64,000 nucleotides of DNA from a virus (IMGVR_UViG_3300022719_000071:288001-352000); one strand, 5' to 3'. Shown: positions 45,502 through 64,000, numbered from the stretch's first letter. Program-made: numbers and translations. The notes: generated by a model from the letters alone, not told the origin.

Positions 45502-45797
45502 GGCAGCCTCAATCTGATGAACTCTGAGCGGACGTACAGCGGACCATCCGCTATACTTACCACGCTGCTAATCTCGGTCACCACCGGTATATCAAATTCT
45601 TGGTAAGAAGTAAACTGAGATTCAGTCAGCTTGATGTATCGTGAGGGATGGATTACAACTTCGTCATCCCGCCCCTTCAGACAGAATGTGTACAAAGTGC
45701 CCTCCACATAGGAATGGCAGAAAAGGCAGACAACTTCGTTATTTATTTCTATTGCATAATATTCATACACGATCTTTATTCCAATTTTCCTCATCAA
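45498..45797 (-). CDS. hypothetical protein
   Basis: 99-aa ORF. Confidence 0.6.
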   Translation of the reverse strand: MMRKIGIKIVYEYYAIEINNEVVCLFCHSYVEGTLYTFCLKGRDDEVVIHPSRYIKLTESQFTSYQEFDIPVVTEISSVVSIADGPLYVRSEFIRLRLP

Positions 45798-45920
45798 AAA
45801 GTGTGGTCTCGGTTCTGCTTAGTTTTGGTGTGTAATAGTCGTACACTTTTTAAATACCTATGCCAGTGGGGGCAGTGCTGCCCCGCACTGCCTCCCCTTT
45901 ATCTAGGAGGCTATAAGAAT

Positions 45921-47251: not shown

Positions 47252-48691
47252 TCAAGCTGCACTGGAGAATGTATCAGCCTCCGGTTCCACCGTCAAGAAT
47301 TCCAGAGCACGCTCACGAACCTCGTCAAGAGTGGTCTTCATCAAAAGGTTACCGTTCATGTAAACCGTCTTGAGTTGGTTGGCACGTGAGTCTGAAAGAT
47401 CTTCCTCACGAATCGTCTTGTACTCGCCATCCTTTTGGATGAGAGCCAAACGCCCACGCTTGGACTTCTTCGTGCTCTGCGTGATTGGATCCTTGTAGAC
47501 ATCCCTCCACTGACCATCCACCCTGGCAGCCGAAGCCTTCATGGCAAAGTTCAGTGTGTCACGATTGACATGTTGAAGCATGGCACCGCCCATTCCGAAT
47601 GCAATGTTGTCCGTGCTCAAATTTGCAGCCTCCATGGCTTCCAGAATCTTGACGATGCTGTAGTAGTTGATACCGTCGCCCTGGATCACACGAACGTAAG
47701 AGGGGAGTACCTTGAACCCCTTGCTGTTGTACACGAAGCCAAACTCATGCATCAACTCCTCGATGACATCGACGACGACCTTGGGAGGATCACCCGAATC
47801 AGGGCGAACCACAAGGGTGCCGCCACCCTCAATGATCTGGTTCTTCAGGCTTCCCCACTTACGGCACGCAGCCATGATATCGTACGAGTCCGATACGGTA
47901 GCGTACAGCTTGCCCTCACCAGCGAACTTGACAATCATGTTCTCGAATGCCTTGATCTCCTGATCAGGACCGCCCCACACCGTGATGGTGCTGTGCTCGG
48001 CAGCGGGGATGGAGAAGCCAGCCATGTCCGCACCGTAGTAAGCACGAGCATAGCGTAGCGACTCGACCGTATCCGTGCCCATAAAATGGACAAGATGCGC
48101 AAGACCACCGATACCAGCAGACTCGTTGCTGGATGTGCCACGAGCGCCGAAGTCATGCAGCTTGAACATGGCATCCATGTTCGGGTTCTCGCTGTCAGAC
48201 GTACGCTTCAGCGACTGCATGATGGCCTTCTTGATGGCCATGTCCTGCGTTGCGACTGTAGTAGGATACCATACGGCACGCAACAGCGCCGTCTCCAGGT
48301 AGCTGGTCAGCCACGGAACCTCCGGGTCGGTGTTCTTGATCTGAACCATGACGTTACCCGTCTTGAGGCTGAATCCCTCCGGGATAGCCTGGATGCATAC
48401 AGGCAGCTTACCGTCGTGCGTGTCCAGGATGTACTGCCAGCCTTCACGATTGAATGGCTCGCCGTGCGCCGTCAGGATTTCATCAGCTTCTTCGATGTCC
48501 TCCTGGGTGAATGGCTCGGACAAATACTCCATTAGGAACATCTGAAGCCCGAAGAAAGTCGTGTGCGTCCATTCCGGATATTCCGAACCACGGCTCTCAA
48601 TGTAGGACGAAACGATTTCAGTACCGTGAGGGTACTGAAGGAAGTGACTCGCCTTGTACGAGTCTGTGTTAAGTAGAATATTCTTCCTCAT
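47252..48691 (-). CDS. nadV: nicotinamide phosphoribosyltransferase (NAMPT)
   Basis: TDSYKASH, LHDFGARG, SIPAAEHST, VSDSYD, VVRPDSGDP, VIQGDG, FGMGG, KKSKRG. Confidence 0.95.
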   Translation of the reverse strand: MRKNILLNTDSYKASHFLQYPHGTEIVSSYIESRGSEYPEWTHTTFFGLQMFLMEYLSEPFTQEDIEEADEILTAHGEPFNREGWQYILDTHDGKLPVCIQAIPEGFSLKTGNVMVQIKNTDPEVPWLTSYLETALLRAVWYPTTVATQDMAIKKAIMQSLKRTSDSENPNMDAMFKLHDFGARGTSSNESAGIGGLAHLVHFMGTDTVESLRYARAYYGADMAGFSIPAAEHSTITVWGGPDQEIKAFENMIVKFAGEGKLYATVSDSYDIMAACRKWGSLKNQIIEGGGTLVVRPDSGDPPKVVVDVIEELMHEFGFVYNSKGFKVLPSYVRVIQGDGINYYSIVKILEAMEAANLSTDNIAFGMGGAMLQHVNRDTLNFAMKASAARVDGQWRDVYKDPITQSTKKSKRGRLALIQKDGEYKTIREEDLSDSRANQLKTVYMNGNLLMKTTLDEVRERALEFLTVEPEADTFSSAA

Positions 48692-48930
48692 AATAGAACT
48701 CCTCTATTTTAAATGCCTCGGGTCTATTCCCAAGGATTGTTCTCGGGAGAGTCACACCGTTATTGGTGCAACCCTCTCATCGATTTGATGTTCCCATTTG
48801 GCTAGCTTCGTTCCAGACTATTGGTATGTCGAACGAAACCACCAGTCTTCTGTATGTCTTTAACATGTAGTACGCTGGATATATGGTTTGCATGGTTTAT
48901 CCCATCGTGCTCGGACTGATTCTTTGCTCA

Positions 48931-50007
48931 TTACAGATCTCCTGTCATCTTCTTGATGATGTGATAGTGGTCCTCGAAGAACATCTCTGGCTTGATGTCC
49001 GCAAGCGGAATCCAATATGCCTTTTTGGCGTCAGATGAACCCTTGACCTTGGGCAGCCCCTTGGGATCTGGCGGCAGCACAATCAGAAATGTATAGCTGA
49101 AAATACGCCCACGTCCAGACCGGTGAGGATCATCGAATACATCACGCTTCTTGATATTTCCACGAAGCACCGGGGAAGGAACCTTGAGCTTGGTTTCTTC
49201 ACGAAGTTCACGGAGCATGCCATCTTCCAGTGTTTCCTCGGGATTGATAAATCCACCCGGCATTGCCACCAAACCCTTGCCAGGATTGGCACCACGCTCG
49301 ATCACCAGGACGTGACCAGACTGCACAATGCAAGCATCCACCGTCGTGTGTGTGGCGGTGTGATTCACGCCCCGGAAGCTGTGATCAGCACGGTATTTTA
49401 TCACGTACTCATGCTCGTCACGCATGCGCTCGAAGTCCTCGGACTTCTGAAACTCTGCCAAGAAACGAACGGTGGCATTGGGGATACCCTCTGCCAGTTC
49501 TCTGCTGATCTCTTTGTTGAAGAAAGCATTTCGGATTTCGGTGGCGTTCACCATGTGACGGTCGGTGAACGCAGGAACGTCGATGGTTGACCAATGCGGA
49601 AACAGGGATAGGTAATAGCTGGTGTGGTCCTTGTTGTGACCAATCAGAGATACCCTGGGTGGATTATCCGTCCACCCGAATTCACGGCGGTCTACCTCGA
49701 TGGCTGTCTTGACCAGCCTCTGAACCTCAGTGATCCAGCCTTGGTTGTTGTACATGTGATCCACGAGGGGAACGATGATGAGCCGGTTGGCGTCGAATTG
49801 GCTGACCTCTTCCAGCACCCAGTTATTGATGACTTGCTTACGCTCCTCGAACGTGAACGGGTTGCGCCAGCTACGTGCCGCATCAGATGAACCCACGAGG
49901 ATGATTACTTTGTCGGACTGCTCAAGAGCCTTCTCGATGACTCTAGCATGTCCATAGTGAAATGGTTGAAAACGGCCAATGAAGACCGTGTAGTCGTACT
50001 TTTGCAT
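48931..50007 (-). CDS. nadM: bifunctional NMN adenylyltransferase / Nudix (ADP-ribose) hydrolase
   Basis: FIGRFQPFHYGH, NPFTFEER, NATEIR; Nudix box GGF...ETLEDGMLRELREET; FEDHYHII. Confidence 0.93.
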   Translation of the reverse strand: MQKYDYTVFIGRFQPFHYGHARVIEKALEQSDKVIILVGSSDAARSWRNPFTFEERKQVINNWVLEEVSQFDANRLIIVPLVDHMYNNQGWITEVQRLVKTAIEVDRREFGWTDNPPRVSLIGHNKDHTSYYLSLFPHWSTIDVPAFTDRHMVNATEIRNAFFNKEISRELAEGIPNATVRFLAEFQKSEDFERMRDEHEYVIKYRADHSFRGVNHTATHTTVDACIVQSGHVLVIERGANPGKGLVAMPGGFINPEETLEDGMLRELREETKLKVPSPVLRGNIKKRDVFDDPHRSGRGRIFSYTFLIVLPPDPKGLPKVKGSSDAKKAYWIPLADIKPEMFFEDHYHIIKKMTGDL

Positions 50008-50026
50008 GATAAGACTCCCTTATCTA

Positions 50027-50899
50027 TTATGCAGCTACCAATCGATTCGGTAACCTGACCTTAATCCACTGTTCCTGAATTCTTCCTCCAGGAAAAAACT
50101 TCTGCTCTTTGACCTGTCCGGTCTTCGGGCAGTGACCCTTAGTGACAGGATACGTGGTGCTGACCTCGCCATTAGCATATAAGTTCACGCTCTCCACTGC
50201 GACGTAATGAACGTCCCACACCGTCACTCGGACTCCCCTCCAATCGTACGTAGGCATGCCCAGGATGTTCTCAACTTGCTGAGCCCTACCAGACAACGGA
50301 TCACCAATGTGGGGCTGTCCGTAAGGTTCACGGAGATTGACGACCGGAATGCCAAGTTCACGTGCTGTGTCCAGTGTACGGAAAATATCACCAGAGTCAA
50401 CAGTCTGAGGCGTCATGACCACGTTCAGCTTACCTGGACGCTTCTCCATTAGCTTCAGAATGGCACGAACATCGGGTGCCTTGCCCATACCCATGGTCTC
50501 GGCGTACAACGCATCATCAAAGCTTGTAATCGACAAACTGTACTTGTCGAACAACTTCATCACATCCGGACGCTTGAGGGCTAAAACTCCATTGGTACGG
50601 AGACCGAAACGAAGACCAGGGATGTACTTGTCCAGGTACGCACGCAGCTTGTCCATGTGAGCATACATCAATGGATCAGTGTTGGAACCAGTGACGTTGA
50701 TTTCCGTGATATTATGCTTGCGGCATTCGAGCACAAAACGATGCAGATTCTGTAACGGATAGGTATTGAGATTGTTGTATGGGTCGAGTGCCATCATGTG
50801 CTGACCGATGCAGAAATAGCATGCACGGTTGCATGGCCCTGAAAGATGGATGTTGCCAAACCAATGGCTAAACTGACCCTGTGAATTCAAACAGCCCAT
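50027..50899 (-). CDS. radical SAM protein
   Basis: CNRACYFC; TGSNTDP; TNG; SITSFD. Confidence 0.88.
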   Translation of the reverse strand: MGCLNSQGQFSHWFGNIHLSGPCNRACYFCIGQHMMALDPYNNLNTYPLQNLHRFVLECRKHNITEINVTGSNTDPLMYAHMDKLRAYLDKYIPGLRFGLRTNGVLALKRPDVMKLFDKYSLSITSFDDALYAETMGMGKAPDVRAILKLMEKRPGKLNVVMTPQTVDSGDIFRTLDTARELGIPVVNLREPYGQPHIGDPLSGRAQQVENILGMPTYDWRGVRVTVWDVHYVAVESVNLYANGEVSTTYPVTKGHCPKTGQVKEQKFFPGGRIQEQWIKVRLPNRLVAA

Positions 50900-50951
50900 A
50901 GGAACCCCCTATGTTATTGGATTGCCGTTGGTCGATCCAGCGGACCTCATT

Positions 50952-50980
50952 TATATATATACCAAAGGTTCAAAAGTCAA
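50952..50980 (-). promoter_or_regulatory. sigma70-type promoter for the rSAM-nadM-nadV unit
   Basis: TTGACT-N17-TATATA on the minus strand. Confidence 0.7.
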
Positions 50981-51022
50981 TACCCTAATAGAAACTTTAA
51001 CGCCCCGTCATCAGAGGTTGGT

Positions 51023-51532
51023 CTAGTCCAGACCGTCCCGGTCGTATCGGCGAAGCTGGGGATTGATCTCAGCGTTCTTTTGTTCCTGCTGGAGCGCACC
51101 ACGCCCGTCACCGAAGGGAGACCAGTAGACCTCTTCGTACATACCGTTTTCGACTCGGAACGTGAACGTTGACTTCTCGTGTTCAGCCAGCAGATACTGT
51201 TCTGCGTGCTGACCGTCACGTAAGGTCTTGGGCAGGAAGACATAGCCACCCTTGATGGTATCCAGGTCGGACAGTTTTTCAGGCGGCTCGGTACCAGGAA
51301 CCCACAGATGAGAATGGAGTTCATACCGAGTGAAGTTCATCTCTTCGATCTTGACCTCGGTCGGGTTCAAAAGAACGAAGATCACCTTCTGCTCCTCGGT
51401 CGGCTTGTGAGCGTCCTCCATCGAGGATGGAATTTGCACCATGGCAATCTCGATTTGCCGCTCCAGGTCCACCAGAGAGGCATACAGAGATGATGTAGCA
51501 GTGGACTGCCCCGAAAGAATTATCTTGCTCAC
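51023..51532 (-). CDS. hypothetical protein
   Basis: GGAG SD, GC-rich codons. Confidence 0.75.
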   Translation of the reverse strand: MSKIILSGQSTATSSLYASLVDLERQIEIAMVQIPSSMEDAHKPTEEQKVIFVLLNPTEVKIEEMNFTRYELHSHLWVPGTEPPEKLSDLDTIKGGYVFLPKTLRDGQHAEQYLLAEHEKSTFTFRVENGMYEEVYWSPFGDGRGALQQEQKNAEINPQLRRYDRDGLD

Positions 51533-51741
51533 TTCGGTTCTCCTATCGCTGGACGAAGTATGTTCCTACCGAGTGCCATGTACACGAACATCGTGAGTTG
51601 ATGATCCTCAGTGTTGTTGGACTTAGGCATACGAATAAACCATTCGTTATGTCTCTCAGCCATTGCCAGGAACTCAGTATACTGCAATTCCCAGTCGAAC
51701 TGAATACCCTCATCCTTAAACCACTGTGGGAATGACGGCAA
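51529..51741 (-). CDS. hypothetical protein
   Basis: Coupled to downstream gene by GTGA overlap. Confidence 0.55.
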   Translation of the reverse strand: MPSFPQWFKDEGIQFDWELQYTEFLAMAERHNEWFIRMPKSNNTEDHQLTMFVYMALGRNILRPAIGEPK

Positions 51742-51876
51742 TGTTCAATTGCCAACGAAATTCGCCCTTTGGCCCTTTTGTCAGGTTGAGCACCATGAAA
51801 CTGGTCATCGGTATGAACCTCATTGGAAAATTTTGGCGTAAGTGCCTAAATAGAGGGTATCACAGAGGACTCCAGA

Positions 51877-52341
51877 ATGTCAATAGACGGCTTCCGACCA
51901 ATCGTAGACGCACTAATCGAGGGCGACGACGCCAAGGCCACAGATTATCTGCTCATGGAGAACAGTGAGCAGCAAATTCTACGGTCCCTAGGCGGTGACC
52001 GCATGCCCATGAACTATATGTTGAAGTTCGAGGAATATCTGGACGACCATGATATCTACCTATTTGATGGTTGGGATTCCGACGAATGCCACATCGCATA
52101 CACCCCCAAGATTGACAAATTCTGGTGCACCTTTTACCTGTTCTGCCCAGAGGGCACTGACCTTCGTGGTGCATCACGTATCACAAACGATCAGGAAGGC
52201 CAGAATCAAGTGAAGGTCAAGAGGGTCGAAGGCGGCAGCATCGTCATGTTCAGGATTCTAAAGCGCTATTTAGATCAGGTCGAAGCCAAGAACCGAGAAA
52301 AAGCAGAAGAACTTTCGAAGGAAGAAATGGAATTCATGTAA
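51877..52341 (+). CDS. conserved jumbo-phage hypothetical protein
   Basis: TAAATA 51847; KFEEYLDDHDIYLFDGW...KFWC pattern. Confidence 0.7.
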   Translation: MSIDGFRPIVDALIEGDDAKATDYLLMENSEQQILRSLGGDRMPMNYMLKFEEYLDDHDIYLFDGWDSDECHIAYTPKIDKFWCTFYLFCPEGTDLRGASRITNDQEGQNQVKVKRVEGGSIVMFRILKRYLDQVEAKNREKAEELSKEEMEFM

Positions 52342-52354
52342 AAAACAATGACCG

Positions 52355-54682
52355 ATGCGACTATCAGAATTTTTCGTATTATTGGAGGCTAAGGATCGAT
52401 TGACATATATCGCATCGACCCTTCAGAAAAAACTCCTCAAGAAATTTCAGAATGACTATGAGGCCAAGAAGCTTCGTGGCACGTCTGTTAATACGATCTT
52501 GAAAAGCGTCAAGCAAGGCGATTTTGTAGAAGCCGCCAAGGACATGGTGGAATTTTTCGCAGCCGCAGATCCCTCACGTAACAACAAGTTTACAGACTGG
52601 ATTGTCCGTCAATGGTTAACGGACAAGGTTTTGTGGGAGGATGCTTATAAGCTGAAGGACTTGTTGGAAGAATTTGATAAGCATCGCAAAACCCTTGAAA
52701 TCAAGGACATTAATGGGTTCAAGGATTATCGTGATCTGGAAGATGCTCTCAAGCCACATATTGGTAAAGCCTCTGCCGGTGTTCGTGTCAAGAACTTCAT
52801 GGACAAGGACCAAACCAAGTCTCTGATGAAGAAGACTGCTCCGGATCCAGAAAGCGATGATATCAAGGTGGCATACAAAAAGAGGCAGGAAGAGTCTACC
52901 GATGTACCTCAATGGTTTTATGATGCCGAGGTTGAAAATGTCACTCACATACTGGATAATGAAACAGATTCTGAAATCTTTTACGATGAAGCAGAGAGTT
53001 ACTTAGACCCAGACGAATTCACAGATGAGGATGGTAATCGTGATGAAGAAGCTTGGGATCTAGCACTAACAGATTATGCAGAAGATTTGAGGCAGCAGTA
53101 TATCAGGAGCAAATTAGAAAATGAAATTAGTGAGCTTTGGCAGGAATATCGTGAGAAACAGGATGATGAATTCAATCGTGAGTTAAAATACGCACCACAA
53201 GTTCCTGAGCTTGTTCCTTTCTATACAACTGATCGTCTGGCTGTCCTCATCCCGAACACCGAAGAAGCAGCTTGCTACGTAGGCTCAGGTACGCAATGGT
53301 GCACGGCTGCGACCAATGCCGAGAACTACTTTTGGGAGTACCGCCTGGATGGACCGATATACGTTGTACTGACAGACAAGTTAGGCAAGTATCAGTTCCA
53401 TTTTGAGTCCGCTCAGTACATGGATGAGAAAGATCGACAGATTGGTAATACCGGTGTCTTACAGAAGTTAGTCTCGAATTACCCAGAGCTTCAAGAAGCA
53501 TTCAAGGAGAAGGCCAAGCAGTTCTACGAGCTATGGCTTATGCCAGTAGGTGAAATTACGGAAGGAATGTGGGCAACCTTGTTTCAAGCAGGATTGAATT
53601 ATGAAAATGCAATAGCCCAAGTAGTTGCTGGGCGTGATGATGAATATGACTGGAATCCATCAGACACTACTGAACTAATTGCACGTGCATATGTGGTTCA
53701 CAAAGATCGCATGCCAGACAAATGGGTTGGAAGGTACAAGGACTACTTGTTGAATAGTGCTAAGAACAAAGCTTTCGAGAATGGGTGGCTAGAAAAGGAT
53801 GAGTTGGACAACAACGCTCTTAATTCCATGATGAGAAACTTCCAGAACGAGTCACGAAATAACAAGGAGGAGTTTATCAAGTGGCTAGTGACCAACGGAG
53901 TCGATATCAATCGTGAGACCTGGGCATACTTGGTTAGAATGTTACCGAATACTTTGATGTTTATTCCAAACGAATTCATTACACCAGATATGGTAGCCAG
54001 AGCACTATCAGCAAATGTAGAAGGAAGTCGTTCCATTCCAGGAGTCTATCAAGGTAAGTCCAAGATACCTTTGTTCAACCTACTGCATGAATATAAGAGT
54101 GCTCGTGATACAACAACACAAAATCCCTTTAAGCAAACTTACATTGACAATGGAAAGAAGATTATCTCCATTGTCAATGAGCAACAGATAAAGGAAGCTA
54201 TTAACGGTGAAGATGCGTTAGGGTTCTTACATTTGATGCAGGACCATTTTGGTGATTTCCCATGGGCATATGCCATCGAGCGTTCACCACGTGACAGCCG
54301 TGAGCTTGCGGTCATTGCACAACAGTTGGCATTCTACCTGAATCCAATGTTTAACTCTGGTATCAAAACCAAACTGAATCGTGATCAACTCATCAATGCC
54401 ATCATATCCAAGCGCCCGGATACCATTCAGGTTTTGAGTAAGTTCATAGAGACTCCTAATGCCCTTCATGGTTTCCATGAGAGAGTCAAAGAAGCGGTAT
54501 TGAATGCAGATAACTGGCGTCGTGGTGAAGCCATTTTGAATGAAGTGTCCGATTGGATCACCAAAGATCTTCATGACGAATTATGGGCTCATTTGAGACA
54601 ACAACGAGATAACGAAGTGAACATTGAACTAGCAAAGAAACGTGCATACGCTGATTCCGCTGGTAACCAGCCAGAAAGATAA
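52355..54682 (+). CDS. tagged head-cargo candidate, WCTA family (paralog of 60898 and 63037)
   Basis: MRLSEFFVLLEAKDR; DPSRNNKFTDW; AACYVGSGTQWCTAA; GPIYV...KYQFHFES.QYMDE. Confidence 0.8.
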   Translation: MRLSEFFVLLEAKDRLTYIASTLQKKLLKKFQNDYEAKKLRGTSVNTILKSVKQGDFVEAAKDMVEFFAAADPSRNNKFTDWIVRQWLTDKVLWEDAYKLKDLLEEFDKHRKTLEIKDINGFKDYRDLEDALKPHIGKASAGVRVKNFMDKDQTKSLMKKTAPDPESDDIKVAYKKRQEESTDVPQWFYDAEVENVTHILDNETDSEIFYDEAESYLDPDEFTDEDGNRDEEAWDLALTDYAEDLRQQYIRSKLENEISELWQEYREKQDDEFNRELKYAPQVPELVPFYTTDRLAVLIPNTEEAACYVGSGTQWCTAATNAENYFWEYRLDGPIYVVLTDKLGKYQFHFESAQYMDEKDRQIGNTGVLQKLVSNYPELQEAFKEKAKQFYELWLMPVGEITEGMWATLFQAGLNYENAIAQVVAGRDDEYDWNPSDTTELIARAYVVHKDRMPDKWVGRYKDYLLNSAKNKAFENGWLEKDELDNNALNSMMRNFQNESRNNKEEFIKWLVTNGVDINRETWAYLVRMLPNTLMFIPNEFITPDMVARALSANVEGSRSIPGVYQGKSKIPLFNLLHEYKSARDTTTQNPFKQTYIDNGKKIISIVNEQQIKEAINGEDALGFLHLMQDHFGDFPWAYAIERSPRDSRELAVIAQQLAFYLNPMFNSGIKTKLNRDQLINAIISKRPDTIQVLSKFIETPNALHGFHERVKEAVLNADNWRRGEAILNEVSDWITKDLHDELWAHLRQQRDNEVNIELAKKRAYADSAGNQPER

Positions 54683-54838
54683 ATATAACCATGAAAAGCA
54701 TTGAATGATACCATGGCTAGACAACAGGAATTGCTGAGCCATTTCTAAGGCGTCATGCAGATGATTATCCTGCTGGACACCCAAGACAACAACCAAAATT
54801 AAAATCCATGAAAGACGAAGAGATACTAGGATAAACAC

Positions 54839-55630
54839 ATGTGGCTGCTTGAAAATCGATATCGAAAAGGCGAACGCATCTCTCGTGTATTTTCTTCAAG
54901 AAAAGATGCCGAACATCAACTAGAACGTTTGGGACCGATTATCTCTGGGCACTATCGTGTCGTTTATGAGTCAGGCGATCCAACGGTAGATCGCATGTTG
55001 ACCGAAGGTTTGGTTCGAGGAGACCTGGAGAACATTCTTCTTCCACGTGTGTCCATCGATGAGTACGTTCCTGCTGACCCGGATACTGATAACGTAGTGG
55101 TGGCTTTCTTCATCAAGGGTGAGCCAAAGGCCACCATACCATTAAAGAACTTCGTAGAGCATTCTTCCGGAGTTCTTAGTACAGACTATGGTGATTCCGA
55201 GACCATCGTAAACACTCAGATTGTATACGCCGAGTTCGACCGTGAAAACCTAGAACTGGATGATATTCATGGCTTAATGGTTCAGATAGCCATGCTATCC
55301 GGGTTGGAAGTCGATGATTTCACTATGACCTTCCCACATACCAACAAGAAGTTTCCCTACGAAATCAATCTGATGGGCCGATACTTTCGCACTCGTAATG
55401 AGCGTAAGAACCGTGAAGCTCAAAAGCGTGCCGAGATCGAACGCCAGAAGAAGATTGACAAGGAACTTCAGAAACTCCATCAGCAGGATCAGGAACAGCC
55501 TTCGAAGCCTGAGCAAGCCCAAAACCAGGGGACAGAGCAAAGAGAGCCTCAGACGCCCGCTGAGGCTCTGGGAGAGATGCCTGTGAAGGAATCTTTGATC
55601 AATAGGCTGGCACAACTGCCAATCGTCTAA
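54839..55630 (+). CDS. conserved jumbo-phage hypothetical protein
   Basis: EGLVRGDLENILLPRVSIDEY...VVVAF...VYAEFDR. Confidence 0.7.
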   Translation: MWLLENRYRKGERISRVFSSRKDAEHQLERLGPIISGHYRVVYESGDPTVDRMLTEGLVRGDLENILLPRVSIDEYVPADPDTDNVVVAFFIKGEPKATIPLKNFVEHSSGVLSTDYGDSETIVNTQIVYAEFDRENLELDDIHGLMVQIAMLSGLEVDDFTMTFPHTNKKFPYEINLMGRYFRTRNERKNREAQKRAEIERQKKIDKELQKLHQQDQEQPSKPEQAQNQGTEQREPQTPAEALGEMPVKESLINRLAQLPIV

Positions 55631-55932
55631 TGCAAATCACGCTCAACAAGTCTTTGCTTCCTCACGAAGAAATGTTCATGAGGCAAGCCTTGCATAGTTT
55701 GGAATCAGACAAACGACTATCCACCGTATCTGATGTTTTGGGTCATCTTGTTTGGAGCGTGGCGAAACATAATCGCAAACAATTGCATCACATGGTGAAA
55801 GCCGCACTCATGGACATGAAGAATGAAAATTGGATCAGAGGATATGATTACATCCGTATAGGTCCAGTTCTTGTTGTCATTGTTACAGGTATGAATGGCA
55901 AAAAACTTGCCATACGTTATCGTCTCCTATGA
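55630..55932 (+). CDS. hypothetical protein
   Basis: TAATG overlap. Confidence 0.7.
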   Translation: MQITLNKSLLPHEEMFMRQALHSLESDKRLSTVSDVLGHLVWSVAKHNRKQLHHMVKAALMDMKNENWIRGYDYIRIGPVLVVIVTGMNGKKLAIRYRLL

Positions 55933-55971
55933 GCTAAATACCCGACTATTCAGAGTATCTGGTTTGAGACA

Positions 55972-56070
55972 ATGAGATTACTACAATTCTTTGGTGCTAT
56001 CAGTGAGGAACGCAACATACCAGACCTAGAGGTTGGTGATGAGTTGATGAACCAGGAGAATAGTTCATGA
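55972..56070 (+). pseudogene. 32-codon tag-bearing gene stub
   Basis: MRLLQFFGAISEERNIPDLEVGDELMNQENSS* after TAAATA 55935. Confidence 0.55.
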
Positions 56071-56552
56071 GATTGTATGAATTCCTTAAACTTACTGAAT
56101 CCAATATAAACCTATCTGGGTGGTACAACGCAAAAACTGGAATTTTTTTGCAATTAGATCGTGGTGAAGATGAGATGTATCACCACTTTGATCTTGCTTT
56201 CGATAATCCAAAAGAATTTGGTGGTAAGCGTGTTCTTGGTAATGTCGTGGATACTACAGACCTGATAGCAAAGGTAGCGAAGGACGGGTGGGTGAGAACC
56301 AATCATTTCGGTGGTGTTTTATATCTAGATGTTACGCCAGAAACCGCCAAGCCTGCTGTAGCGTGGGGTGCAGAATATACTAGTAACATCGTAGTTGGTA
56401 TCTGGCCGGTGGGCAAGAGCTTTGGTGAAATCAAGGAAATCAAGCTCAATAACCTCAAAGAGATTAAAGCGTTTCTGGAAAGTAAATTGACCGAAACTAT
56501 CAATTCACGTTCTTTTGACACGCTGGTTATCACTGATCCATTGCCGGGATAA
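56067..56552 (+). CDS. tagged head-cargo candidate
   Basis: MRLYEFLKLTES; GWVR motif like that in the 3647 gene. Confidence 0.7.
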   Translation: MRLYEFLKLTESNINLSGWYNAKTGIFLQLDRGEDEMYHHFDLAFDNPKEFGGKRVLGNVVDTTDLIAKVAKDGWVRTNHFGGVLYLDVTPETAKPAVAWGAEYTSNIVVGIWPVGKSFGEIKEIKLNNLKEIKAFLESKLTETINSRSFDTLVITDPLPG

Positions 56553-56556
56553 GACG

Positions 56557-57309
56557 ATGAAATTACAAGAACTCATTCAGCACTCGCAGACCAAAGCCGG
56601 TAACATCACTTTGGACTACAACGAGGACGTTGAACCAGAGAACCGTGGCTTTGTGATTGATCGTATTGATGCATATCAAGATGGTAGACACATTGGCTAT
56701 CTCAAGATCTCCTACGTACCAAAAGAACTGTTCCACAAGTTCTTTCCATCTGTACTGCACTTCGAGTCAATCCTGCACGGCAAGAATTACATCCCATACA
56801 ATATCATTCGCAATGGTCCACCATTCCAGCATTGGTCAAAGTACGACGAAGAAACACAACGTCAAATGCTAGCCAGCGTTATGGTATCCCATTACTGGAG
56901 TAAACAAGGCATCGCCAAAACTCTACCAATCGATCAAGTCAGAGCCCTGATTCGAAAATTCGAGCGGGAAATGGCCAAGTCTACACGTCCAGGATCATAC
57001 AGAGATTTCTATGCACACTTTGTAAACAAGCCATTCGTGGATTACATCAAGGTAGACAGCGGTGATCCATTTGATGCCGAGTCATTTGGACGTGAGAGAG
57101 ACAGCGAAGGTGAGGACATGCGTCGTAAAGGAATCGGAACTACGTTGTATAGAGCTGGTGCGCAATGGATGAAAGAACGTGGAATGAAACTTCATGCTTC
57201 TGGTACGCAATCAGATGAAGCACAGGCAGCATGGGAGAAATTTACTCAACAAGGTAAAATTGGCAAAACCAAATCCGGTCGTAAATACTACAAAGAACAA
57301 AGACGATGA
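56557..57309 (+). CDS. tagged GNAT-family acetyltransferase
   Basis: MKLQELI; FVDYIKV...MRRKGIGTTLY...SGTQSDEAQAAWEKF. Confidence 0.75.
   Translation: MKLQELIQHSQTKAGNITLDYNEDVEPENRGFVIDRIDAYQDGRHIGYLKISYVPKELFHKFFPSVLHFESILHGKNYIPYNIIRNGPPFQHWSKYDEETQRQMLASVMVSHYWSKQGIAKTLPIDQVRALIRKFEREMAKSTRPGSYRDFYAHFVNKPFVDYIKVDSGDPFDAESFGRERDSEGEDMRRKGIGTTLYRAGAQWMKERGMKLHASGTQSDEAQAAWEKFTQQGKIGKTKSGRKYYKEQRR
57143..57251 (+). repeat. repeat X (109 nt), exact copy at 59179-59287
   Basis: cgttgtatagagctggtgcg...gagaaatttactcaaca in both places. Confidence 0.95.
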
Positions 57310-57350
57310 AGATCCTTGAGTTCCTACAACCAGGGTACGATTACCATTAA
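57306..57350 (+). pseudogene. tag-only stub MKILEFLQPGYDYH*
   Basis: ATGA overlap with the GNAT stop; downstream DNA looks like decayed coding sequence. Confidence 0.5.
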
Positions 57351-57545
57351 AACACTTTGAGAATACTAAGTACTTTACAAAACGGTGTCTGTGGTAAATG
57401 CAGTTGAGATTGATGGATCGAATGCTCTGGAGTGGATCATGTTGGAGTCCATAGGATTCAACAACCGTTCTTATGATGAACAAGGATCCATACACTAGCA
57501 GTAACATGGAAGCACGTCTGTTGAAATTCTAATTGGACTACTCAT

Positions 57546-57782
57546 ATGAAGACAATCGTAATTAGCCCGGAAAACGTATCTCTTTTTCTTCTAGAGGATT
57601 CTGTTCAGCTTGATGTTCAGCCTGACCACATCTATTCGGCCAATCACAATGCTACGATTACGTTTCTGAATGCATCAAACTGTGCGATACACGAAGACGT
57701 GAATGCACCAGTAGATTGGGCACCGGAAAAGTATCTGTTTGATGGAGTCACCTGGAGTGCTAATCCAGACTACGTGGGATAA
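57546..57782 (+). CDS. small tail-fibre-associated protein
   Basis: APVDWAPEKYLFDGVTWSANPDY motif. Confidence 0.6.
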   Translation: MKTIVISPENVSLFLLEDSVQLDVQPDHIYSANHNATITFLNASNCAIHEDVNAPVDWAPEKYLFDGVTWSANPDYVG

Positions 57783-57786
57783 GAAA

Positions 57787-59055
57787 ATGACTGGAAAACT
57801 CATAATAAAAAGTGGAAGCATTATAACAGTTCAATCCGGAGGACGGGCCATCATAGGCCCAAAGGAAGTTGTTGGTTGGGCAGAATGGGATGGTAGTAGC
57901 GACAGTGTTAATCAAAGTGTTATAAGCTCTGGCATTGGCGGATATCCATTAAATGCCAATCTATACAACACCGATTCGATTTCTTTGCTATACCGGAATG
58001 CTTCTTTTAACTTCACTGCTACAGCGTCTACTTTGTTTCTATCTGGGAATACCATTACCCAAGGTTCGTCTGGTGAGTTTATATTCGGACCATCTCCAGG
58101 ACAGAACAATTCTGACATCACTAATGTAGACAGTAATACAATCATCTTTACCAATCGTAATAACACTACCACAACTAGCGCATGGCAAGGAACCGCATAT
58201 AACATTTCTGCTGCCCCAGTAGGAACATATTCGAGTGGTTCTACACGTACGTTGTCTACTAGTGGATTTACGCAGGGTGGTAACTATTTTCAAGTCAACC
58301 GATTTGCAGTTGGTGAAATAAGCTTTACGCAACGTCTAAAGGCAAACAACGGATCACAACAATTTGTTCGTACTGTTTCTAACAACTCGTTGAACAGTGC
58401 GAATGCGGCATCTGGTTCCGATTTTAGTGCATCGGGGAATACGTTTTTGAGAACATTCGGTGGCGGTGACACCGGAGGACATGGAGACGTTGGAAATAGC
58501 CGTGTGGCAATCCTACGTGATGATACCGATGATGAAGAGCTATTCTTTACATCGTTTTCTAATCCTACTCTTAGTGTTGGAACATTATACAACACTAGCA
58601 GCATTGACGGGCCATCTTCTAGTTTCTACTTGCATAAAATCATTGATGAAGACCACGTTTTGGTGACATACTCTGATACTACCACCGGTGATCTGTCTGG
58701 TGTAGTATTGACATTGAGTGGTAACGATGTTATTGCAATCGGTACTCCATTTACTTTGCGTTCTGGAGAGGAATGGTTGACCGTGAAAATAATTTCTACT
58801 GCGGCGAATCAGGTTATGATTATTGGTGACGTGGAAGAAGATGCAGATCCAGGAAACCGAGATATCAAGGTAGCCGTTGTTACCTTCGCAGACGTAAACA
58901 CTCCTACAGTAGAATCCGTAATCGATATTGATGCACTACATAGTGCTGGTGCTGGAAATGCTCATCCGCAAATACTTCCGTTAGATGCTAGCAGGATTCT
59001 GGCTCTATGGAGTGACGGTACATCCAATCTTCAAGGGCGTGTGCTCAACCTATAA
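57787..59055 (+). CDS. beta-rich putative adhesin/tail-fibre module, allele B
   Basis: MTGKLIIKSGSIITVQSGG; S/T/G-rich repeated beta blades. Confidence 0.65.
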   Translation: MTGKLIIKSGSIITVQSGGRAIIGPKEVVGWAEWDGSSDSVNQSVISSGIGGYPLNANLYNTDSISLLYRNASFNFTATASTLFLSGNTITQGSSGEFIFGPSPGQNNSDITNVDSNTIIFTNRNNTTTTSAWQGTAYNISAAPVGTYSSGSTRTLSTSGFTQGGNYFQVNRFAVGEISFTQRLKANNGSQQFVRTVSNNSLNSANAASGSDFSASGNTFLRTFGGGDTGGHGDVGNSRVAILRDDTDDEELFFTSFSNPTLSVGTLYNTSSIDGPSSSFYLHKIIDEDHVLVTYSDTTTGDLSGVVLTLSGNDVIAIGTPFTLRSGEEWLTVKIISTAANQVMIIGDVEEDADPGNRDIKVAVVTFADVNTPTVESVIDIDALHSAGAGNAHPQILPLDASRILALWSDGTSNLQGRVLNL

Positions 59056-59056
59056 T

Positions 59057-59183
59057 GGTTAAATACAGGGTATCTACTAGGAACCCTGTAAATGCGTCTT
59101 GTTGAATTCTTCGAGCTTCTGGAAGCCAAAGACAGACTAGAATATCTTGCTGACAAAAATGCCAGCAAGATCTTCGCTCGTTG
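59057..59183 (+). repeat. repeat Y (127 nt), near-exact copy of 60863-60989
   Basis: TAAATA motif, hairpin and first 30 codons of the 60898 gene. Confidence 0.95.
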
Positions 59184-59367
59184 TATAGAGCTGGTGCGCA
59201 ATGGATGAAAGAACGTGGAATGAAACTTCATGCTTCTGGTACGCAATCAGATGAAGCACAGGCAGCATGGGAGAAATTTACTCAACAGGGTAAAGTTGCC
59301 AAAGGTAAGCACGGACGACGCTATCTGGAGAAAAAGGATGAAGCTATTAGAATTTTTAGATGACTGA
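59092..59367 (+). pseudogene. chimeric remnant: 5' of 60898 gene joined out of frame to GNAT 3' end, then MKLLEFLDD* stub
   Basis: Y/X junction at shared CGTTG (59179-83). Confidence 0.85.
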
Positions 59368-59587
59368 TGATTTACTGCTGTAATCCTATCTCGCAGAACA
59401 AACCAAATGCGGCATCATGAATGCTTTGATACACTTTCTTGAAGAAATAGCAAGATCCAAAAGGGAAAAAGAGGTATGAGAGATTATTCGTCAACTGGCG
59501 ACCATCTTATGTCTCGATCCGCTAAATAATTTGTAATGACACCACAATCCGGATACACCGGAATCTCAGAGTAACAGGAAAAATTTA

Positions 59588-60838
59588 ATGACTGGTATAA
59601 TCAATATCAAAAGCGGAAGCCTTCTTACTATCCAATCTGGTGGGGTGCTAAGCACCGGCCCATTGCCACCACAGCCTCTTTGGGGTGGCTACGATGGCAG
59701 CAACAATGGTGCCTCTAATAACCTTGGAGCGCTTGGTACTAGTGGAATATTGAGGTTCTTTTCTCTTCCAATTATGGACACCGACAAGGTGATGCTGGGT
59801 TATTTTGGATCTGGAGAAAGTAGTTTCCCACGTGCTATAATTGCGTCCAGGAGTGGTGATACTGTTTCAGTAGGTAGCAGTCTACTGCTTAATAGTATCA
59901 ACACTAGCAGTAACAGATTTGGTATTGCAGGATCGGATACCAACCGTGCTATTGCGTACTATCGAAATGGCGATGCCTCAGACGGTAAGGTTCTGACCGT
60001 ATCCGGCACCACAATAAGTTCTGCTGGCACAACTTTTGGTGTCATTGGTTCTGGTCGTCCCAACAATCTAGAGATGGCACAAATCGATACAAACAGACAC
60101 ATCATTACATGGAACACTTCTACTGGTGGGTTTGAGACCCGTGTTCACGCTGCTACCAATACTGGTGGAACAATTACCAGTGGTGGCACTGGTAATTTGA
60201 TATTCACCAATCACGTTGCTAATGACAACTCCAGTGCTAAGTTAGACAGCACTCGTATTATCAATGCCTATCGACAGAGCCTTAGTGGTCAACCGGACAG
60301 CAATGACATCTTTATTCAAGTACATGAGAACACTTCAGGAACCACGATATCATCCGGTACTCCTGTGAAGATTGAAGAGTCTGGTAATAACACAGAGAAA
60401 ATGTTGTGTGTGATTCCAATCACCGCAAATGCGGCTGCTGTTATCTACGGCGGATCGGTTCCTGACAAAACCTTCATTCAGTTCTACTCCATTAACGGAA
60501 CCACGTTGACCGCAGAAGGTGGAGAACAGACATTGGATAATAAATTCTGGTCCGGCAAGAACCCATCCGAATCAACCTTCAATTGCACCAAGCTAACAGA
60601 GACAGAGTTCATGGTGTCCTATATTACTAATTCTGGTGGTATCTTAGACTGGGTAAGTCGTGTAATCACCTTTCCAACGACTACTACTTTCTCATTGGGT
60701 AGTGAGGTATTGCTACTACCAAGTGGAACATTTGCAAACGAAAGAGTTATTCAAACATTGAATAGCACCACTGTCCTGGCTTTGTACACCGAGAATACAT
60801 CCACTGACACAGCACGAGCAATCGTAATCAACGTCTAA
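59588..60838 (+). CDS. beta-propeller-like putative adhesin/tail-fibre module, allele C
   Basis: MTGIINIKSGSLLTIQSGG; about seven ~55-aa repeats such as VLTVSGTTISSAGT, ENTSGTTISSGTP, YSINGTTLTAEG. Confidence 0.7.
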   Translation: MTGIINIKSGSLLTIQSGGVLSTGPLPPQPLWGGYDGSNNGASNNLGALGTSGILRFFSLPIMDTDKVMLGYFGSGESSFPRAIIASRSGDTVSVGSSLLLNSINTSSNRFGIAGSDTNRAIAYYRNGDASDGKVLTVSGTTISSAGTTFGVIGSGRPNNLEMAQIDTNRHIITWNTSTGGFETRVHAATNTGGTITSGGTGNLIFTNHVANDNSSAKLDSTRIINAYRQSLSGQPDSNDIFIQVHENTSGTTISSGTPVKIEESGNNTEKMLCVIPITANAAAVIYGGSVPDKTFIQFYSINGTTLTAEGGEQTLDNKFWSGKNPSESTFNCTKLTETEFMVSYITNSGGILDWVSRVITFPTTTTFSLGSEVLLLPSGTFANERVIQTLNSTTVLALYTENTSTDTARAIVINV

Positions 60839-60897
60839 GGCGTGTCCTCAACCTACTGTAACGGTTAAATACAGGGTACCATCAAGGAACCCTGTAA

Positions 60898-62949
60898 ATG
60901 CGTCTTGTTGAATTCTTCGAGCTTCTGGAAGCCAAAGACAGACTAGAATATCTTGCTGACAAAAATGCCAGCAAGATATTTGCTCGTTGGAAACAAAAAG
61001 TCAATGACGAGGGAATGACAGGATTACCCCAAGATTGGATCGAAGCAATAGCCGATGGCATCATCCCAGATGCCATGACCATGGAACAATTCAAGGATTT
61101 GAATGACCTCGCACAACGTCACCAAGATATGCCAAAGTGGGTAGTAGATTTCTTCGCCCAATTCGATCCATCCAAGAATAACAAGTATACCGATTGGATT
61201 CTACGCCAGTGGCTCTCTGACAAGCTGTGGCTAGAAGACACCTACAAGCTCACCAGCACGCTTGAAACATTCGAGGAGCACCGCAAGAAGCTAGGTAACA
61301 TGGACATCCTAGATCGTAATGGAGACCCATTAGGACCGCCCCCAGAGCGCCGTGGAGATATTAACGCCTGGAAAGACTACCGAACCCTCTTCCACGCTCT
61401 TAGGCCGCTACAAGGCACTACAGCGGCTGGTGAGAAGGTATCAAATTTCTTGGCAAAAGATAACATTCAGAAAATGATGCACATTCCTGTTCCAGATCCA
61501 GTGAGTACATTTGGTCCAAATGGTGAGCATGACATTGATGAGATCCAAAGCGATTACGCAGAATGGGCTGGAAAGGACGGTGGTGAGTTTGATACCCATG
61601 ATTGGTATGACTTCGTTGGTTCGGATGAGGATACCGAATCTACCACTGAAATCAAGCCAATTTACAAGTCCGACCGTTTGGCAGTTCTTCAGCCAAACAC
61701 ACGACGTGCAGCTTGTGAGCTAGGACGTGGCACCGAGTGGTGCACCGCTTCTACGTCATCCCACAACCACTTCTGGAATTATGCACCGAGTGGCCCGCTG
61801 TATGTCATATTGACTGACAAGATGGGCAAGTATCAGTTCCACTTTGATTCGGGGCAATTTGCCGATGTACATGATAATATGCTTAGCGACGAGCAGAAAG
61901 CAGAATTGGCGAATGCATACCCCGAACTACGTAAAATTTTTGCTGATGAAGCTGTAAAGCATGGTCAACTATGGTTGATCGATCCAGCAATGATTACTTC
62001 GGAGTATCTGGAGAACATTCAAAATGATCCAGACATCTATGGTCCTTATAGCCGGGAAGCTCGAAGTCGTTTGGAAATGCTGATGCAGAAAATTCCAAAG
62101 GCATTTGATGGCAAGGCTGATGAGAAAGCATTGCGTATGGCTGAGGAGTGGCTAAGGAAGAATAAACCAGAAGAGGCTTGGAGGTATGTACGTAAGCCAA
62201 CTGAGCAAGACTTCTTGGATGGTATTCAATCCATGCCATCTGATGACATTCGTCAGGTGACCAATACTTGGAACATTATGAATTTTGCAAGGCAAAACAA
62301 CATTGAACTTTCGGATGAGGTATACGAGGCTGCGGTTGCGTCTGACTCCGAATCTATTCTATCGGTCACAGTGTCTGCTATATCCAGGAACCCACAGTGG
62401 GTTCTGGCCGCTGTTAAGGACCAGCCACGTTTCGTTGAGATGATTTATGCAACCCTATTTGGTGATTCTCAGTATGACATAGAGACAGAGCGTGCTCAGG
62501 TTATGCACCATGCACTAATGTCCCTGGATGGCGGTAAGGAGTTAATAATGAATGCACTATATAACCGTCCAACTATGGTGCGTTGGTTAGGTAATGTATT
62601 TGGTATTGACCCATGGAAGCACGCCTTCAAAATTGCACATGTAATATGGAATGATCATAGCGTAATGAACCAATTGCGTAAGATTCTTGAGACACAGAAC
62701 TTCAGTAACGAAGAACTAGTCGATTTGCTGATGTACCTGTTTGATATTAACGCAATCAATTTGTCACTGGTCAAAACAATCGAGCACAAGCTTGGTGGTT
62801 CTCTTCCATTGCAGTTACAGAAGAAGATTGTTCAAGAGAATCCACTGAACATTCAATTGATAGGAAATCCGGACCCAAATGTGCTGAAGATAGCACAAGC
62901 TATGGTCAAGGGTAATAGCGAGCTATCCTCGTTGCGCAGAGCGCAATGA
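60898..62949 (+). CDS. tagged head-cargo candidate, WCTA family
   Basis: MRLVEFFELLEAKDR; DPSKNNKYTDW; AACELGRGTEWCTAS; GPLYV...KYQFHF. Confidence 0.8.
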   Translation: MRLVEFFELLEAKDRLEYLADKNASKIFARWKQKVNDEGMTGLPQDWIEAIADGIIPDAMTMEQFKDLNDLAQRHQDMPKWVVDFFAQFDPSKNNKYTDWILRQWLSDKLWLEDTYKLTSTLETFEEHRKKLGNMDILDRNGDPLGPPPERRGDINAWKDYRTLFHALRPLQGTTAAGEKVSNFLAKDNIQKMMHIPVPDPVSTFGPNGEHDIDEIQSDYAEWAGKDGGEFDTHDWYDFVGSDEDTESTTEIKPIYKSDRLAVLQPNTRRAACELGRGTEWCTASTSSHNHFWNYAPSGPLYVILTDKMGKYQFHFDSGQFADVHDNMLSDEQKAELANAYPELRKIFADEAVKHGQLWLIDPAMITSEYLENIQNDPDIYGPYSREARSRLEMLMQKIPKAFDGKADEKALRMAEEWLRKNKPEEAWRYVRKPTEQDFLDGIQSMPSDDIRQVTNTWNIMNFARQNNIELSDEVYEAAVASDSESILSVTVSAISRNPQWVLAAVKDQPRFVEMIYATLFGDSQYDIETERAQVMHHALMSLDGGKELIMNALYNRPTMVRWLGNVFGIDPWKHAFKIAHVIWNDHSVMNQLRKILETQNFSNEELVDLLMYLFDINAINLSLVKTIEHKLGGSLPLQLQKKIVQENPLNIQLIGNPDPNVLKIAQAMVKGNSELSSLRRAQ

Positions 62950-63036
62950 CGTAGCACGCCACCGAAGAGGAGATGACAAACATGATAGCTGAAGTAATGG
63001 AGACATTAAAACAAAGATTACATGGTGATTAAAGCG

Positions 63037-64000
63037 ATGATACCACTAACAGTAATCATGAACGAGGAAGAGTTGCTGGAGAATCGTTTGGAGTTTCTTC
63101 AGCAAAAGTTCGCTGAGCCTTTGGCTGCCAGAGCAGCACAAGACCCCCAGGCCAAATCTGTGGCCGGTGGGGACGTATTCACGTTCTTGGTGAATGCTGA
63201 CCCGTCTCCCAACAAAAAGTTCGTCCAGTGGCTTATAGGGCTCTATCTGAAGGGAAACCTGATGCTAGAAGATGTGTACAAGGCCAATGAGTATCTTCAG
63301 TTGTTCTTGAAGAACGTGAAGAAGCTTCCTGGGCCTATGCGTGATATCAATCGTTACAAAAACATCAATGACCTGTACGACGTGATCGAACAGTACGAGG
63401 AAGTGCAAACACAGAGTGAGATCAATCTTAAGCTTGACCAGAAGATGCATGGCCCTGAACATGTGAACATCATCTATAACAGCCCGACGATGAAGGTGTT
63501 GCAATTGAAGAGCAAACAGGCAGCTTGCTATTTTGGCAAGAACACCAAGTGGTGTACGGCTGCACGTAACAACAACATGTACGATACTTATGCCAAGCAA
63601 GGTCCAATCTTTATTGTCCTGGTAAAGAAAGAGAACGTGCGTTTCCAATTGCATTTCGAGTCCAATCAGTTTATGAATGAGAAGGACCAAAGTGTTGACA
63701 TGATGGAGCTTGGAGACAAATACCCAGAACTCAAAAAGGCGCTTGGTTTATTGTATAACAAGGCTGTGGTCACACAAGACCCATCGAATATTTTCCAGTT
63801 GGAGAATCCAGTGGATGAGGTTGTGGAAACAGCATTCTATCGTAAACCATCGATGATTAAGAACATAAGCGATCCAAGCATGCCGATGATTATCGGTGCA
63901 ATAAAAAAGGAACCTGAGATCATAATAGATTTGATCAAGACTGGTGTTGAGGTTCCGGATGAATTGCAGACGTATGCTGTGCAGCAGAACTTTTCTTTGT
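63037..64000 (+). CDS. WCTA-family protein, runs off the window (absent from ORF track; start uncertain)
   Basis: EELLENRLEFL; DPSPNKKFVQW; AACYFGKNTKWCTAA; GPIFI...RFQLHFESNQFMNE. Confidence 0.8.
   Translation, partial: MIPLTVIMNEEELLENRLEFLQQKFAEPLAARAAQDPQAKSVAGGDVFTFLVNADPSPNKKFVQWLIGLYLKGNLMLEDVYKANEYLQLFLKNVKKLPGPMRDINRYKNINDLYDVIEQYEEVQTQSEINLKLDQKMHGPEHVNIIYNSPTMKVLQLKSKQAACYFGKNTKWCTAARNNNMYDTYAKQGPIFIVLVKKENVRFQLHFESNQFMNEKDQSVDMMELGDKYPELKKALGLLYNKAVVTQDPSNIFQLENPVDEVVETAFYRKPSMIKNISDPSMPMIIGAIKKEPEIIIDLIKTGVEVPDELQTYAVQQNFSL

Follow-up and report, generated by a model that had tools for sequence, protein, structure and literature searches.

How two unlike genes for putative surface proteins, flanked by nearly the same DNA, came to lie head to tail in one phage genome is the question raised by a locus in the IMG/VR virus record IMGVR_UViG_3300022719_000071. 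The window analysed here, a stretch of 64,000 nucleotides (nt), comprises bases 288001-352000 of this 360,469-bp record (CheckV completeness 91%), which belongs to an uncultivated jumbo phage of about 360 kb. The two genes, B (422 amino acids; window positions 57787-59055, plus strand) and C (416 amino acids; 59588-60838, plus strand), lie between a gene for a GNAT acetyltransferase and a gene for a protein of 683 amino acids. The initial annotation took them for two divergent adhesin alleles, each excisable by one crossover, and took their arrangement for either a captured intermediate of allele exchange or a host-range switch that needs no recombinase. The evidence set out below makes it probable that two deletion variants of a hypervariable cassette locus have been rejoined here, and that the result is a genuine partial diploid, a heteroallelic tandem.

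Two pairs of long direct repeats define the two units of the tandem. Repeat X (57143-57267, plus strand) sits within the last ~55 codons of the GNAT gene (56557-57309, plus strand), which encodes 250 amino acids and ends in a C-terminal tail here called v1. Its counterpart X' (59179-59303) belongs to a promoterless 3' fragment of a GNAT gene with a different tail, v2 (59179-59363, plus strand). X and X' are 98% identical over 125 nt at a spacing of 2036 nt, and as the mismatches begin at 57252, 57259 and 57263, the initial 109 nt (57143-57251), starting with CGTTG, are identical. Repeat Y (59031-59183, plus strand) consists of the final 7 codons of B, an intergenic hairpin and the initial 31 codons of a copy of the 683-amino-acid gene, while Y' (60834-60989, plus strand) contains a second variant of the hairpin and the true start of that gene (60898-62949, plus strand), which is intact. 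The main blocks of this pair (59050-59183 and 60856-60989) are 94% identical over 134 nt at a spacing of 1806 nt, and a further 22-nt match (59031-59052 and 60834-60855, 86%) adjoins them through a 3-nt indel, so that the start of the Y block falls inside the last codons of B. The two copies are distinguished by the loop of the hairpin and by two synonymous substitutions (60978 and 60981 in Y'). Since only about 2e-5 exact 20-mers are expected by chance in 7 kb, repeats of such length are not fortuitous, and both pairs, together with the order of the units, are confirmed as the initial annotation gave them. The hairpin itself (59064-59090 in Y, -13.6 kcal/mol, z -2.7; counterpart at 60870-60896 in Y') has an 8-bp stem and encloses the AGGA ribosome-binding site of the 683-amino-acid gene; the stems are identical and five loop bases differ between the copies.

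The novel joint of the tandem is the pentanucleotide CGTTG (59179-59183, plus strand), a microhomology already noted in the initial annotation and read directly in the sequence. Y and X' overlap in these five bases alone, of which a single copy is kept; the same five bases stand at both parental sites, 57143-47 in the GNAT gene and 60985-89 in the 683-amino-acid gene. The joint fuses codon 31 of the 683-amino-acid gene to codon ~196 of the GNAT gene out of frame, resulting in a chimeric open reading frame (ORF) of 38 amino acids (59092-59208, plus strand; 31 codons of the former gene, then 7 out-of-frame codons of X') and the promoterless GNAT tail. This chimeric ORF, although annotated as a gene in one contig (L009, see below), is a dead gene fragment. 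Inside the units, identity gives way sharply to an absence of DNA similarity, and beyond the repeats no similarity between the unit interiors was found above that of shuffled controls. A search for inverted repeats flanking the variable segment revealed just one weak internal palindrome pair.

The joint was examined in Logan contigs from four runs of one study (X1-X4), placed on window positions 56900-61300, so that the evidence comes from contigs and unitigs rather than raw reads. In run X1, probably the source sample of the window, the unitigs break 30 nt (k-1) into each repeat, as a 31-mer graph demands, and a 67-nt unitig (59142-59208) spans the joint at a depth of 23.2. The depth is 16.5 in the B unit, 16.9 in the C unit and 13-15 in the flanks, which places the joint at about one copy per genome. 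The X core forms a unitig of its own at a depth of 42.5 (unique sequence, 13-17), as does the Y core (59079-59171) at 41.2. A 151-nt contig (59108-59258) crosses the joint in run X4. Depths this even point to the tandem as the predominant genotype of X1 and, together with its recurrence in other samples, do not fit the transient form that had been proposed.

Further support comes from two contigs that the Joint Genome Institute (JGI) assembled from sample 3300023214. One of these (L009) runs from 59083 to 59178 and then from 57143 to 59171, with one single-nucleotide polymorphism (SNP), and is 2125 nt long with an 89-nt end redundancy. The other (L012) extends from 59190 through C and the 683-amino-acid gene to the end of the window at 99.96% identity, and its start, 98 nt ahead of the first base specific to v2, indicates an assembly graph with k=99. 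In such a graph of a B-C tandem, the edge comprising the X core, B and the joint is 2125 nt long with an 89-nt redundancy, matching L009 exactly. L009 is thus the loop edge and L012 the exit edge of the tandem, and L009 gives independent support for the joint. An excised 2036-bp circle and a B-B array were also considered for L009 and were rejected, as the graph of the B-C tandem predicts the contig. The joint is not an assembly artefact.

A strain with a single cassette exists in the same study. An 83-kb JGI contig from sample 3300023218 (L007) equals the window minus exactly 2036 bp and carries C only; it aligns to window positions 47554-57267 and 59179-63200 at 99.4-99.7% identity. Its GNAT gene is intact, encoding 256 amino acids with the v2 tail, so the tail adjoining X' in the window is the real end of the gene in the C-only strain. 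In run X3, likewise, a contig jumps from 57142 to 59179 and B is uncovered. The product forecast for a crossover between X and X', namely loss of 2036 bp with a GNAT gene left intact but differently ended, therefore exists as an exact genome. With 43 SNPs over 13.6 kb (0.3%), L007 is a distinct lineage and not a fresh segregant. For the reciprocal crossover between Y and Y', the predicted loss of 1806 bp is arithmetically correct, but the B-only form did not turn up: the corresponding joint (59183 to 60990) was present in none of the contigs of the four runs, of which X2 has coverage holes, and contigs cannot show absence.

Gene C differs from its counterpart in the C-only strain (L007:10001-11251) by 9 SNPs in 1251 nt, 8 of them non-synonymous and 1 synonymous. 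The SNP density is 2.6 times that of the neighbouring genes (0.28%; 17 non-synonymous and 10 synonymous). The raised density and the excess of non-synonymous changes are suggestive of selection on C, although the contrast in the ratio of non-synonymous to synonymous changes (8:1 against 17:10) is not significant. The near identity (99.4%) of the C-only strain and the window ends abruptly at window position 63200 (L007:13612), inside an ORF that starts at 63022; beyond this point L007 carries genes for proteins of 83 and 291 amino acids. A second mosaic breakpoint thus lies 2 kb away from the tandem.

Comparison with a distant phage (contigs L002 and L003) reveals what the two genes are. There, a C-type gene, a gene for a protein of 78 amino acids and a B-type gene lie in a row, and the same order is found on the contig that carries P0018, from a third run. 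The C-type protein of L002 (407 amino acids) is homologous to C over its full length (32% identity, E 2e-36), and the B-type protein (P0002, 424 amino acids) is 74% identical to B. The synteny between L002 and the window is limited to 57382-59052, and the flanks are unrelated. In the window, the 78-amino-acid gene (57546-57782, plus strand) is the upstream companion of B, as it is of other B-type genes, and is 49% identical to its counterpart at the same position in L002 (2310-2543).

Each unit also keeps a relic of the gene that it lacks. In unit 1, the frameshifted last ~50 codons of a C-type gene (57382-57535, plus strand) were recognised in tblastx and blastn searches against positions 2149-2298 of L002, where blastn gave 84.8% over 46 nt (E 4.6e-7). 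The relic ends in ARLLKF and a stop codon 10 nt 5' of the 78-amino-acid gene, a spacing shared with L002, and does not resemble the 3' end of the C gene in the window itself. In unit 2, what is left of a B-type gene, its last six codons with the stop (60839-60861, plus strand), stands directly 3' of the stop codon of C; 60841-60861 translates as RVLNLL-stop, against RVLNL-stop at the end of B, in keeping with the remnant of B reported there at the outset. Because L002 has both genes side by side and each unit retains a relic of the other type, B and C are two paralogous beta-propeller types and not alleles of one gene, as had been assumed. The relics further indicate that unit 1 is a two-propeller cassette minus its C-type gene and unit 2 the same cassette minus its 78-amino-acid and B-type genes.

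The locus between the GNAT and 683-amino-acid genes thus occurs in at least two very different versions with near-identical flanks. Version 1 would consist of the v1 GNAT tail, the C-type relic, the 78-amino-acid gene and B, and version 2 of the v2 GNAT tail, C and the B-type relic; both would be reciprocal deletion derivatives of an older cassette of C-type, 78-amino-acid and B-type genes, which is intact in the distant phage. The tandem would then have arisen by a single illegitimate crossover at the 5-bp CGTTG, which linked the 683-amino-acid gene of a version-1 genome, at codon 31, with a GNAT gene at codon ~196. This may have been an unequal crossover of the version-1 genome directly with a co-infecting version-2 genome, or the crossover may first have duplicated B, after which a single homologous crossover in X took place with a version-2 genome. 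For the order of events, which we infer, the two synonymous differences between Y and Y' are informative, as they lie 8-11 nt from the joint. The version-1 bases at these sites show that the sequence left of the joint derives from a version-1 genome, and they exclude that a C-only genome was duplicated and its first copy then replaced. By either route the genome again encodes both propellers, with two dead gene fragments at the joint, and the direct repeats of 109-153 nt would allow either unit to be lost by ordinary homologous recombination, an irreversible segregation. To call the tandem an intermediate of allele exchange is imprecise, as normal cassette exchange through conserved flanks needs no tandem, while the 5-bp illegitimate joint is needed here.

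The proteins encoded by the two units share a design but little sequence. In agreement with the initial annotation, according to which B and C have little in common beyond their starts and repeat style, BLASTP aligns only their first 98 residues (33% identity, E 6e-7), and a profile-profile comparison extends to 116 columns (E 7e-5). The AlphaFold2 (AF2) model of C (pLDDT 79.5, pTM 0.79) is all-beta and comprises an N-terminal beta-hairpin tag, a linker and a predicted seven-bladed beta-propeller. Its Foldseek matches are propellers, with TM up to 0.73-0.81; those in the PDB are seven-bladed and include a rhamnose-glucuronate lyase, Sec12 and sialidases, and it also resembles many uncharacterised proteins of phages and giant viruses, a few of them labelled tail fibre or hemagglutinin. 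The model of B (AF2 pLDDT 71, pTM 0.76) shows, after the N-terminal tag, an all-beta domain that is propeller-like but divergent, with matches to propellers, sialidases and lectins. A family hidden Markov model (HMM) built without B-type or C-type rows gave C a score of 69.6 bits. Based on these models and profiles, C fits the seven-bladed propeller family and B appears to be a divergent member of it.

The family is recognised by about seven repeats of ~52 residues with the signature ..VSGTTIS.G... A profile made from B, C and a few relatives retrieved 7924 proteins at E<=1e-3 and 1727 at 1e-30; the family is dominated by two-propeller proteins of ~850-870 amino acids, and its Atlas neighbours are mostly viral. 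It has no Pfam entry, and neither Pfam nor PHROGs contains a family for B, C or the 78-amino-acid protein. A word-based protein search with the 78-amino-acid protein returned only the query. A 45-amino-acid protein (P0177) on contigs L010 and L011 was set aside, as its context is that of IS21 and it is unrelated. The 78-amino-acid protein and B were modelled as a complex with an ipSAE of 0.83, the best of three controls reaching 0.01; this mark is attained by 58 of the 80 complexes with solved structures, against 2 of 110 mismatched pairs, counts that hold roughly here, given the two-row alignments used for these models. At least 58% of the contacts agree between runs and the pLDDT of the partner is at least 88, which supports the 78-amino-acid protein as a predicted binding partner of B.

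Within the genome, a 26-residue N-terminal motif, M[ST]G.I.I..GS..I...GG, is confined to B, C and a protein with a Laminin_G_3 domain. The models of B and C show it as a beta-hairpin, with a floppy, low-confidence linker after it. The third protein has 277 amino acids (G000:C1:252346-253236, minus strand; L006:745-1635; Laminin_G_3 E 7.9e-20), and its gene adjoins those of a DNA ligase and a methyltransferase. B, with its 78-amino-acid partner, and C may therefore be exposed binding modules docked through the shared N-terminal tag. The term adhesin is plausible for both, judged from fold and design.

Two simpler accounts of the tandem are weighed against this evidence. The first is that an assembler stitched together a B-only and a C-only strain, which share cassette flanks and could have been mixed in one sample, as the C-only strain in X3 illustrates. 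This has almost nothing in its favour otherwise: a k-mer assembler does not join sequences on a 5-bp overlap, the joint unitig stands at full depth in the independent Logan assembly of the run, and the joint recurs in a second run and in the JGI assembly of another sample with SNPs of its own. Moreover, only one path uses each edge of the graph once, and it leads from the left flank through X, B, the joint, X' and C to the right flank. The initial annotation had held that a lack of reads across 59057-59287 would betray such a chimera, and contigs span that stretch. Hardly more credible is a doubling of one 2-kb segment through the CGTTG joint, with the copies drifting into B and C in place. 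The head-to-tail layout and the single copy of the microhomology are indeed the signature of a simple tandem duplication (PMC9391042). However, the ends of the units are 94-100% identical yet their interiors have no DNA similarity above that of shuffled sequences, a pattern that divergence in place cannot produce. The gene content of the units is also unlike (relic, 78-amino-acid gene and B against C and relic), and the C-type relic of unit 1 resembles the gene of L002 rather than the C of the window.

A more serious contender, although still an unlikely one, is a segregating host-range device, in which the tandem is kept because recombination between X and X' or Y and Y' keeps yielding C-only and B-only progeny that differ in specificity, a form of bet-hedging in the population without a dedicated recombinase. 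Either loss would leave every flanking gene intact, the product of the X/X' crossover is found in nature, the genome has no site-specific recombinase, and the excess of SNPs in C relative to the C-only strain hints at selection on binding. Against this, irreversible loss cannot toggle; coverage in the source run is about the same at the joint and in each unit, so that segregants are not abundant; neither the B-only joint nor a circle was seen, L009 being accounted for by the assembly graph; and the C-only strain, 0.3% different across 13.6 kb, is a separate lineage. The two dead gene fragments at the joint look like the result of an accident, and the contrast between C and its neighbours in the ratio of non-synonymous to synonymous changes falls short of significance. 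It is similarly doubtful that the tandem is a selected, self-segregating partial diploid of two exchangeable, tag-docked surface modules, whose single-module progeny would have narrower and different host ranges.

The enzymes encoded by the phage bear on the same question. No serine or tyrosine recombinase (PF00239, PF00589) is present in the 360-kb record, in searches with positive controls, and no gene of the RecA, UvsX or Rad51 type was detected by profile in the phage genome. The genome also lacks a reverse transcriptase (PF00078), and the locus does not qualify as a diversity-generating retroelement. With no recombinase, reverse transcriptase or RecA/Rad51-type gene detected, loss of a unit would depend on general recombination. 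In the absence of a recombinase, of inverted repeats and of a reverse transcriptase, the locus is not a switch. The earlier suggestion of a host-range switch is accordingly not supported, since direct repeats give irreversible loss and neither a B-only segregant nor a circle appears in the contigs.

Several observations weigh against a tandem of two rejoined deletion variants, or limit it. No version-1 (B-only) genome was found, which leaves one of the two parents hypothetical, and the C-only strain could be either the ancestral type or a segregant of the tandem. X and X' of the window are the same at two sites (59242-43) where both differ from the X of L007; a later gene conversion would also fit. 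As 31-mer unitigs cannot be phased across the X core of 109 nt, any minor subpopulation of B-only or C-only genomes in the source sample is uncountable, and all four runs come from one study, one of them probably the source of the window. As regards the proteins, B fits the propeller family weakly (21 bits with a family HMM built without B-type sequences), and B, C and the third tag-bearing gene lie outside any recognisable structural module.

The genes on either side of the tandem are of different kinds. The GNAT gene matches Pfam Acetyltransf_1 (E 2.6e-7, residues 186-227). The 683-amino-acid gene matches phrog_28193 and is one of three paralogous large ORFs in the window (52355-54682, 60898-62949 and 63022-64000), which have in common matches to phrog_28193 / phrog_17056 that centre on a ..G.EWCTA.. 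core; the fragment duplicated in Y is the beginning of the 683-amino-acid member. In the C-only strain, CGA stands in place of its stop codon TGA (window 62947), which gives a protein of 692 amino acids. Genes nearby include one for PhoH (45648-46640) and, at 47252-50899, an NAD salvage pair for NAMPT and an NMNAT-Nudix fusion with an adjoining radical SAM gene on the minus strand.

Searches for relatives of the locus returned little. Among GenBank phages, megablast with the window DNA found no close relative and tblastn with C found no match. Scans of IMG/VR with back-translated GNAT, B and C gave nothing, nor did exact searches for the X and Y core patterns in viral and metagenome contigs, and neither result is a measure of rarity.

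The locus provides a natural snapshot of how gene content is rebuilt in phages, with a single-cassette sister strain in the same study, of a kind of rejoining that has been known until now mainly through T4 laboratory genetics. The analysis also brought out a large, unnamed and mostly viral propeller family, a small conserved protein predicted as the partner of one propeller type, and an N-terminal tag common to three lectin-like proteins that are otherwise unrelated. Should these three prove to be receptor-binding modules, the locus would offer a handle on the host range of an uncultivated jumbo phage lineage. Were the tandem to be self-segregating after all, it would represent recombinase-free bet-hedging in which the receptor-binding proteins (RBPs) are tag-docked propellers of a new family.

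Of the known systems, the closest are in T4. Tandem duplications at rII were reportedly described by Kumagai in 1993, and the classical rII partial diploids were recovered from crosses between two deletion mutants. Tandem amplifications of dmd-tifA formed at microhomologies of 6-10 bp, with one copy left at each joint (eLife 2022, PMC9391042). The jumbo phage tandem resembles these duplications in its head-to-tail units, its downstream-to-upstream joint and its single copy of the microhomology (5 bp here, 6-10 bp in T4), and it may likewise be open to loss through homologous recombination between the copies. Like the rII partial diploids, it joins copies with complementary defects and restores the full gene set. 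It differs from the T4 cases in coming from a natural population of an uncultivated jumbo phage and not from laboratory selection. Its units are unrelated except for their ends of 109-153 nt, which leaves a short homology for segregation and makes it at most a variant of the T4 class. Furthermore, the T4 cases are set apart by the lack, in the jumbo phage, of any detected RecA, UvsX or Rad51-type gene.

Mu and P1 provide the contrasting case of a true switch. The G segment of Mu (Gin) and the C segment of P1 (Cin) have inverted repeats and an adjacent serine recombinase, and toggle reversibly. Like them, the present locus holds two alternative variable genes of fibre type, flanked by repeats; unlike them, its repeats are direct, there is no recombinase, both genes are intact and expressible together, and recombination would delete instead of inverting. 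In ordinary phage mosaicism, exchange at conserved flanks swaps one cassette for another. The tandem shares with it boundaries at gene ends where near-identical DNA gives way abruptly to dissimilar DNA, and the occurrence of the same cassette (relic, 78-amino-acid gene and B) in unrelated contexts in two phages. It departs from ordinary mosaic exchange in that an illegitimate joint kept both cassettes.

With respect to the proteins, phages K1-5, K1E and SP6 and Klebsiella phages use short conserved N-terminal docking peptides, and two RBPs widen their host range (Latka 2019, PMC6872550). B and C are similarly neighbours that share a short N-terminal peptide and have unrelated distal domains. 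In contrast to the dual-RBP phages, no adapter or T4gp10-like anchor was identified (no candidate was sought), the distal domains are beta-propellers, with LamG on a third protein, instead of beta-helix tailspikes, and the genes lie among non-structural genes. Taken together, these comparisons show no new switch but a process familiar in phages, caught in an unusually legible state.

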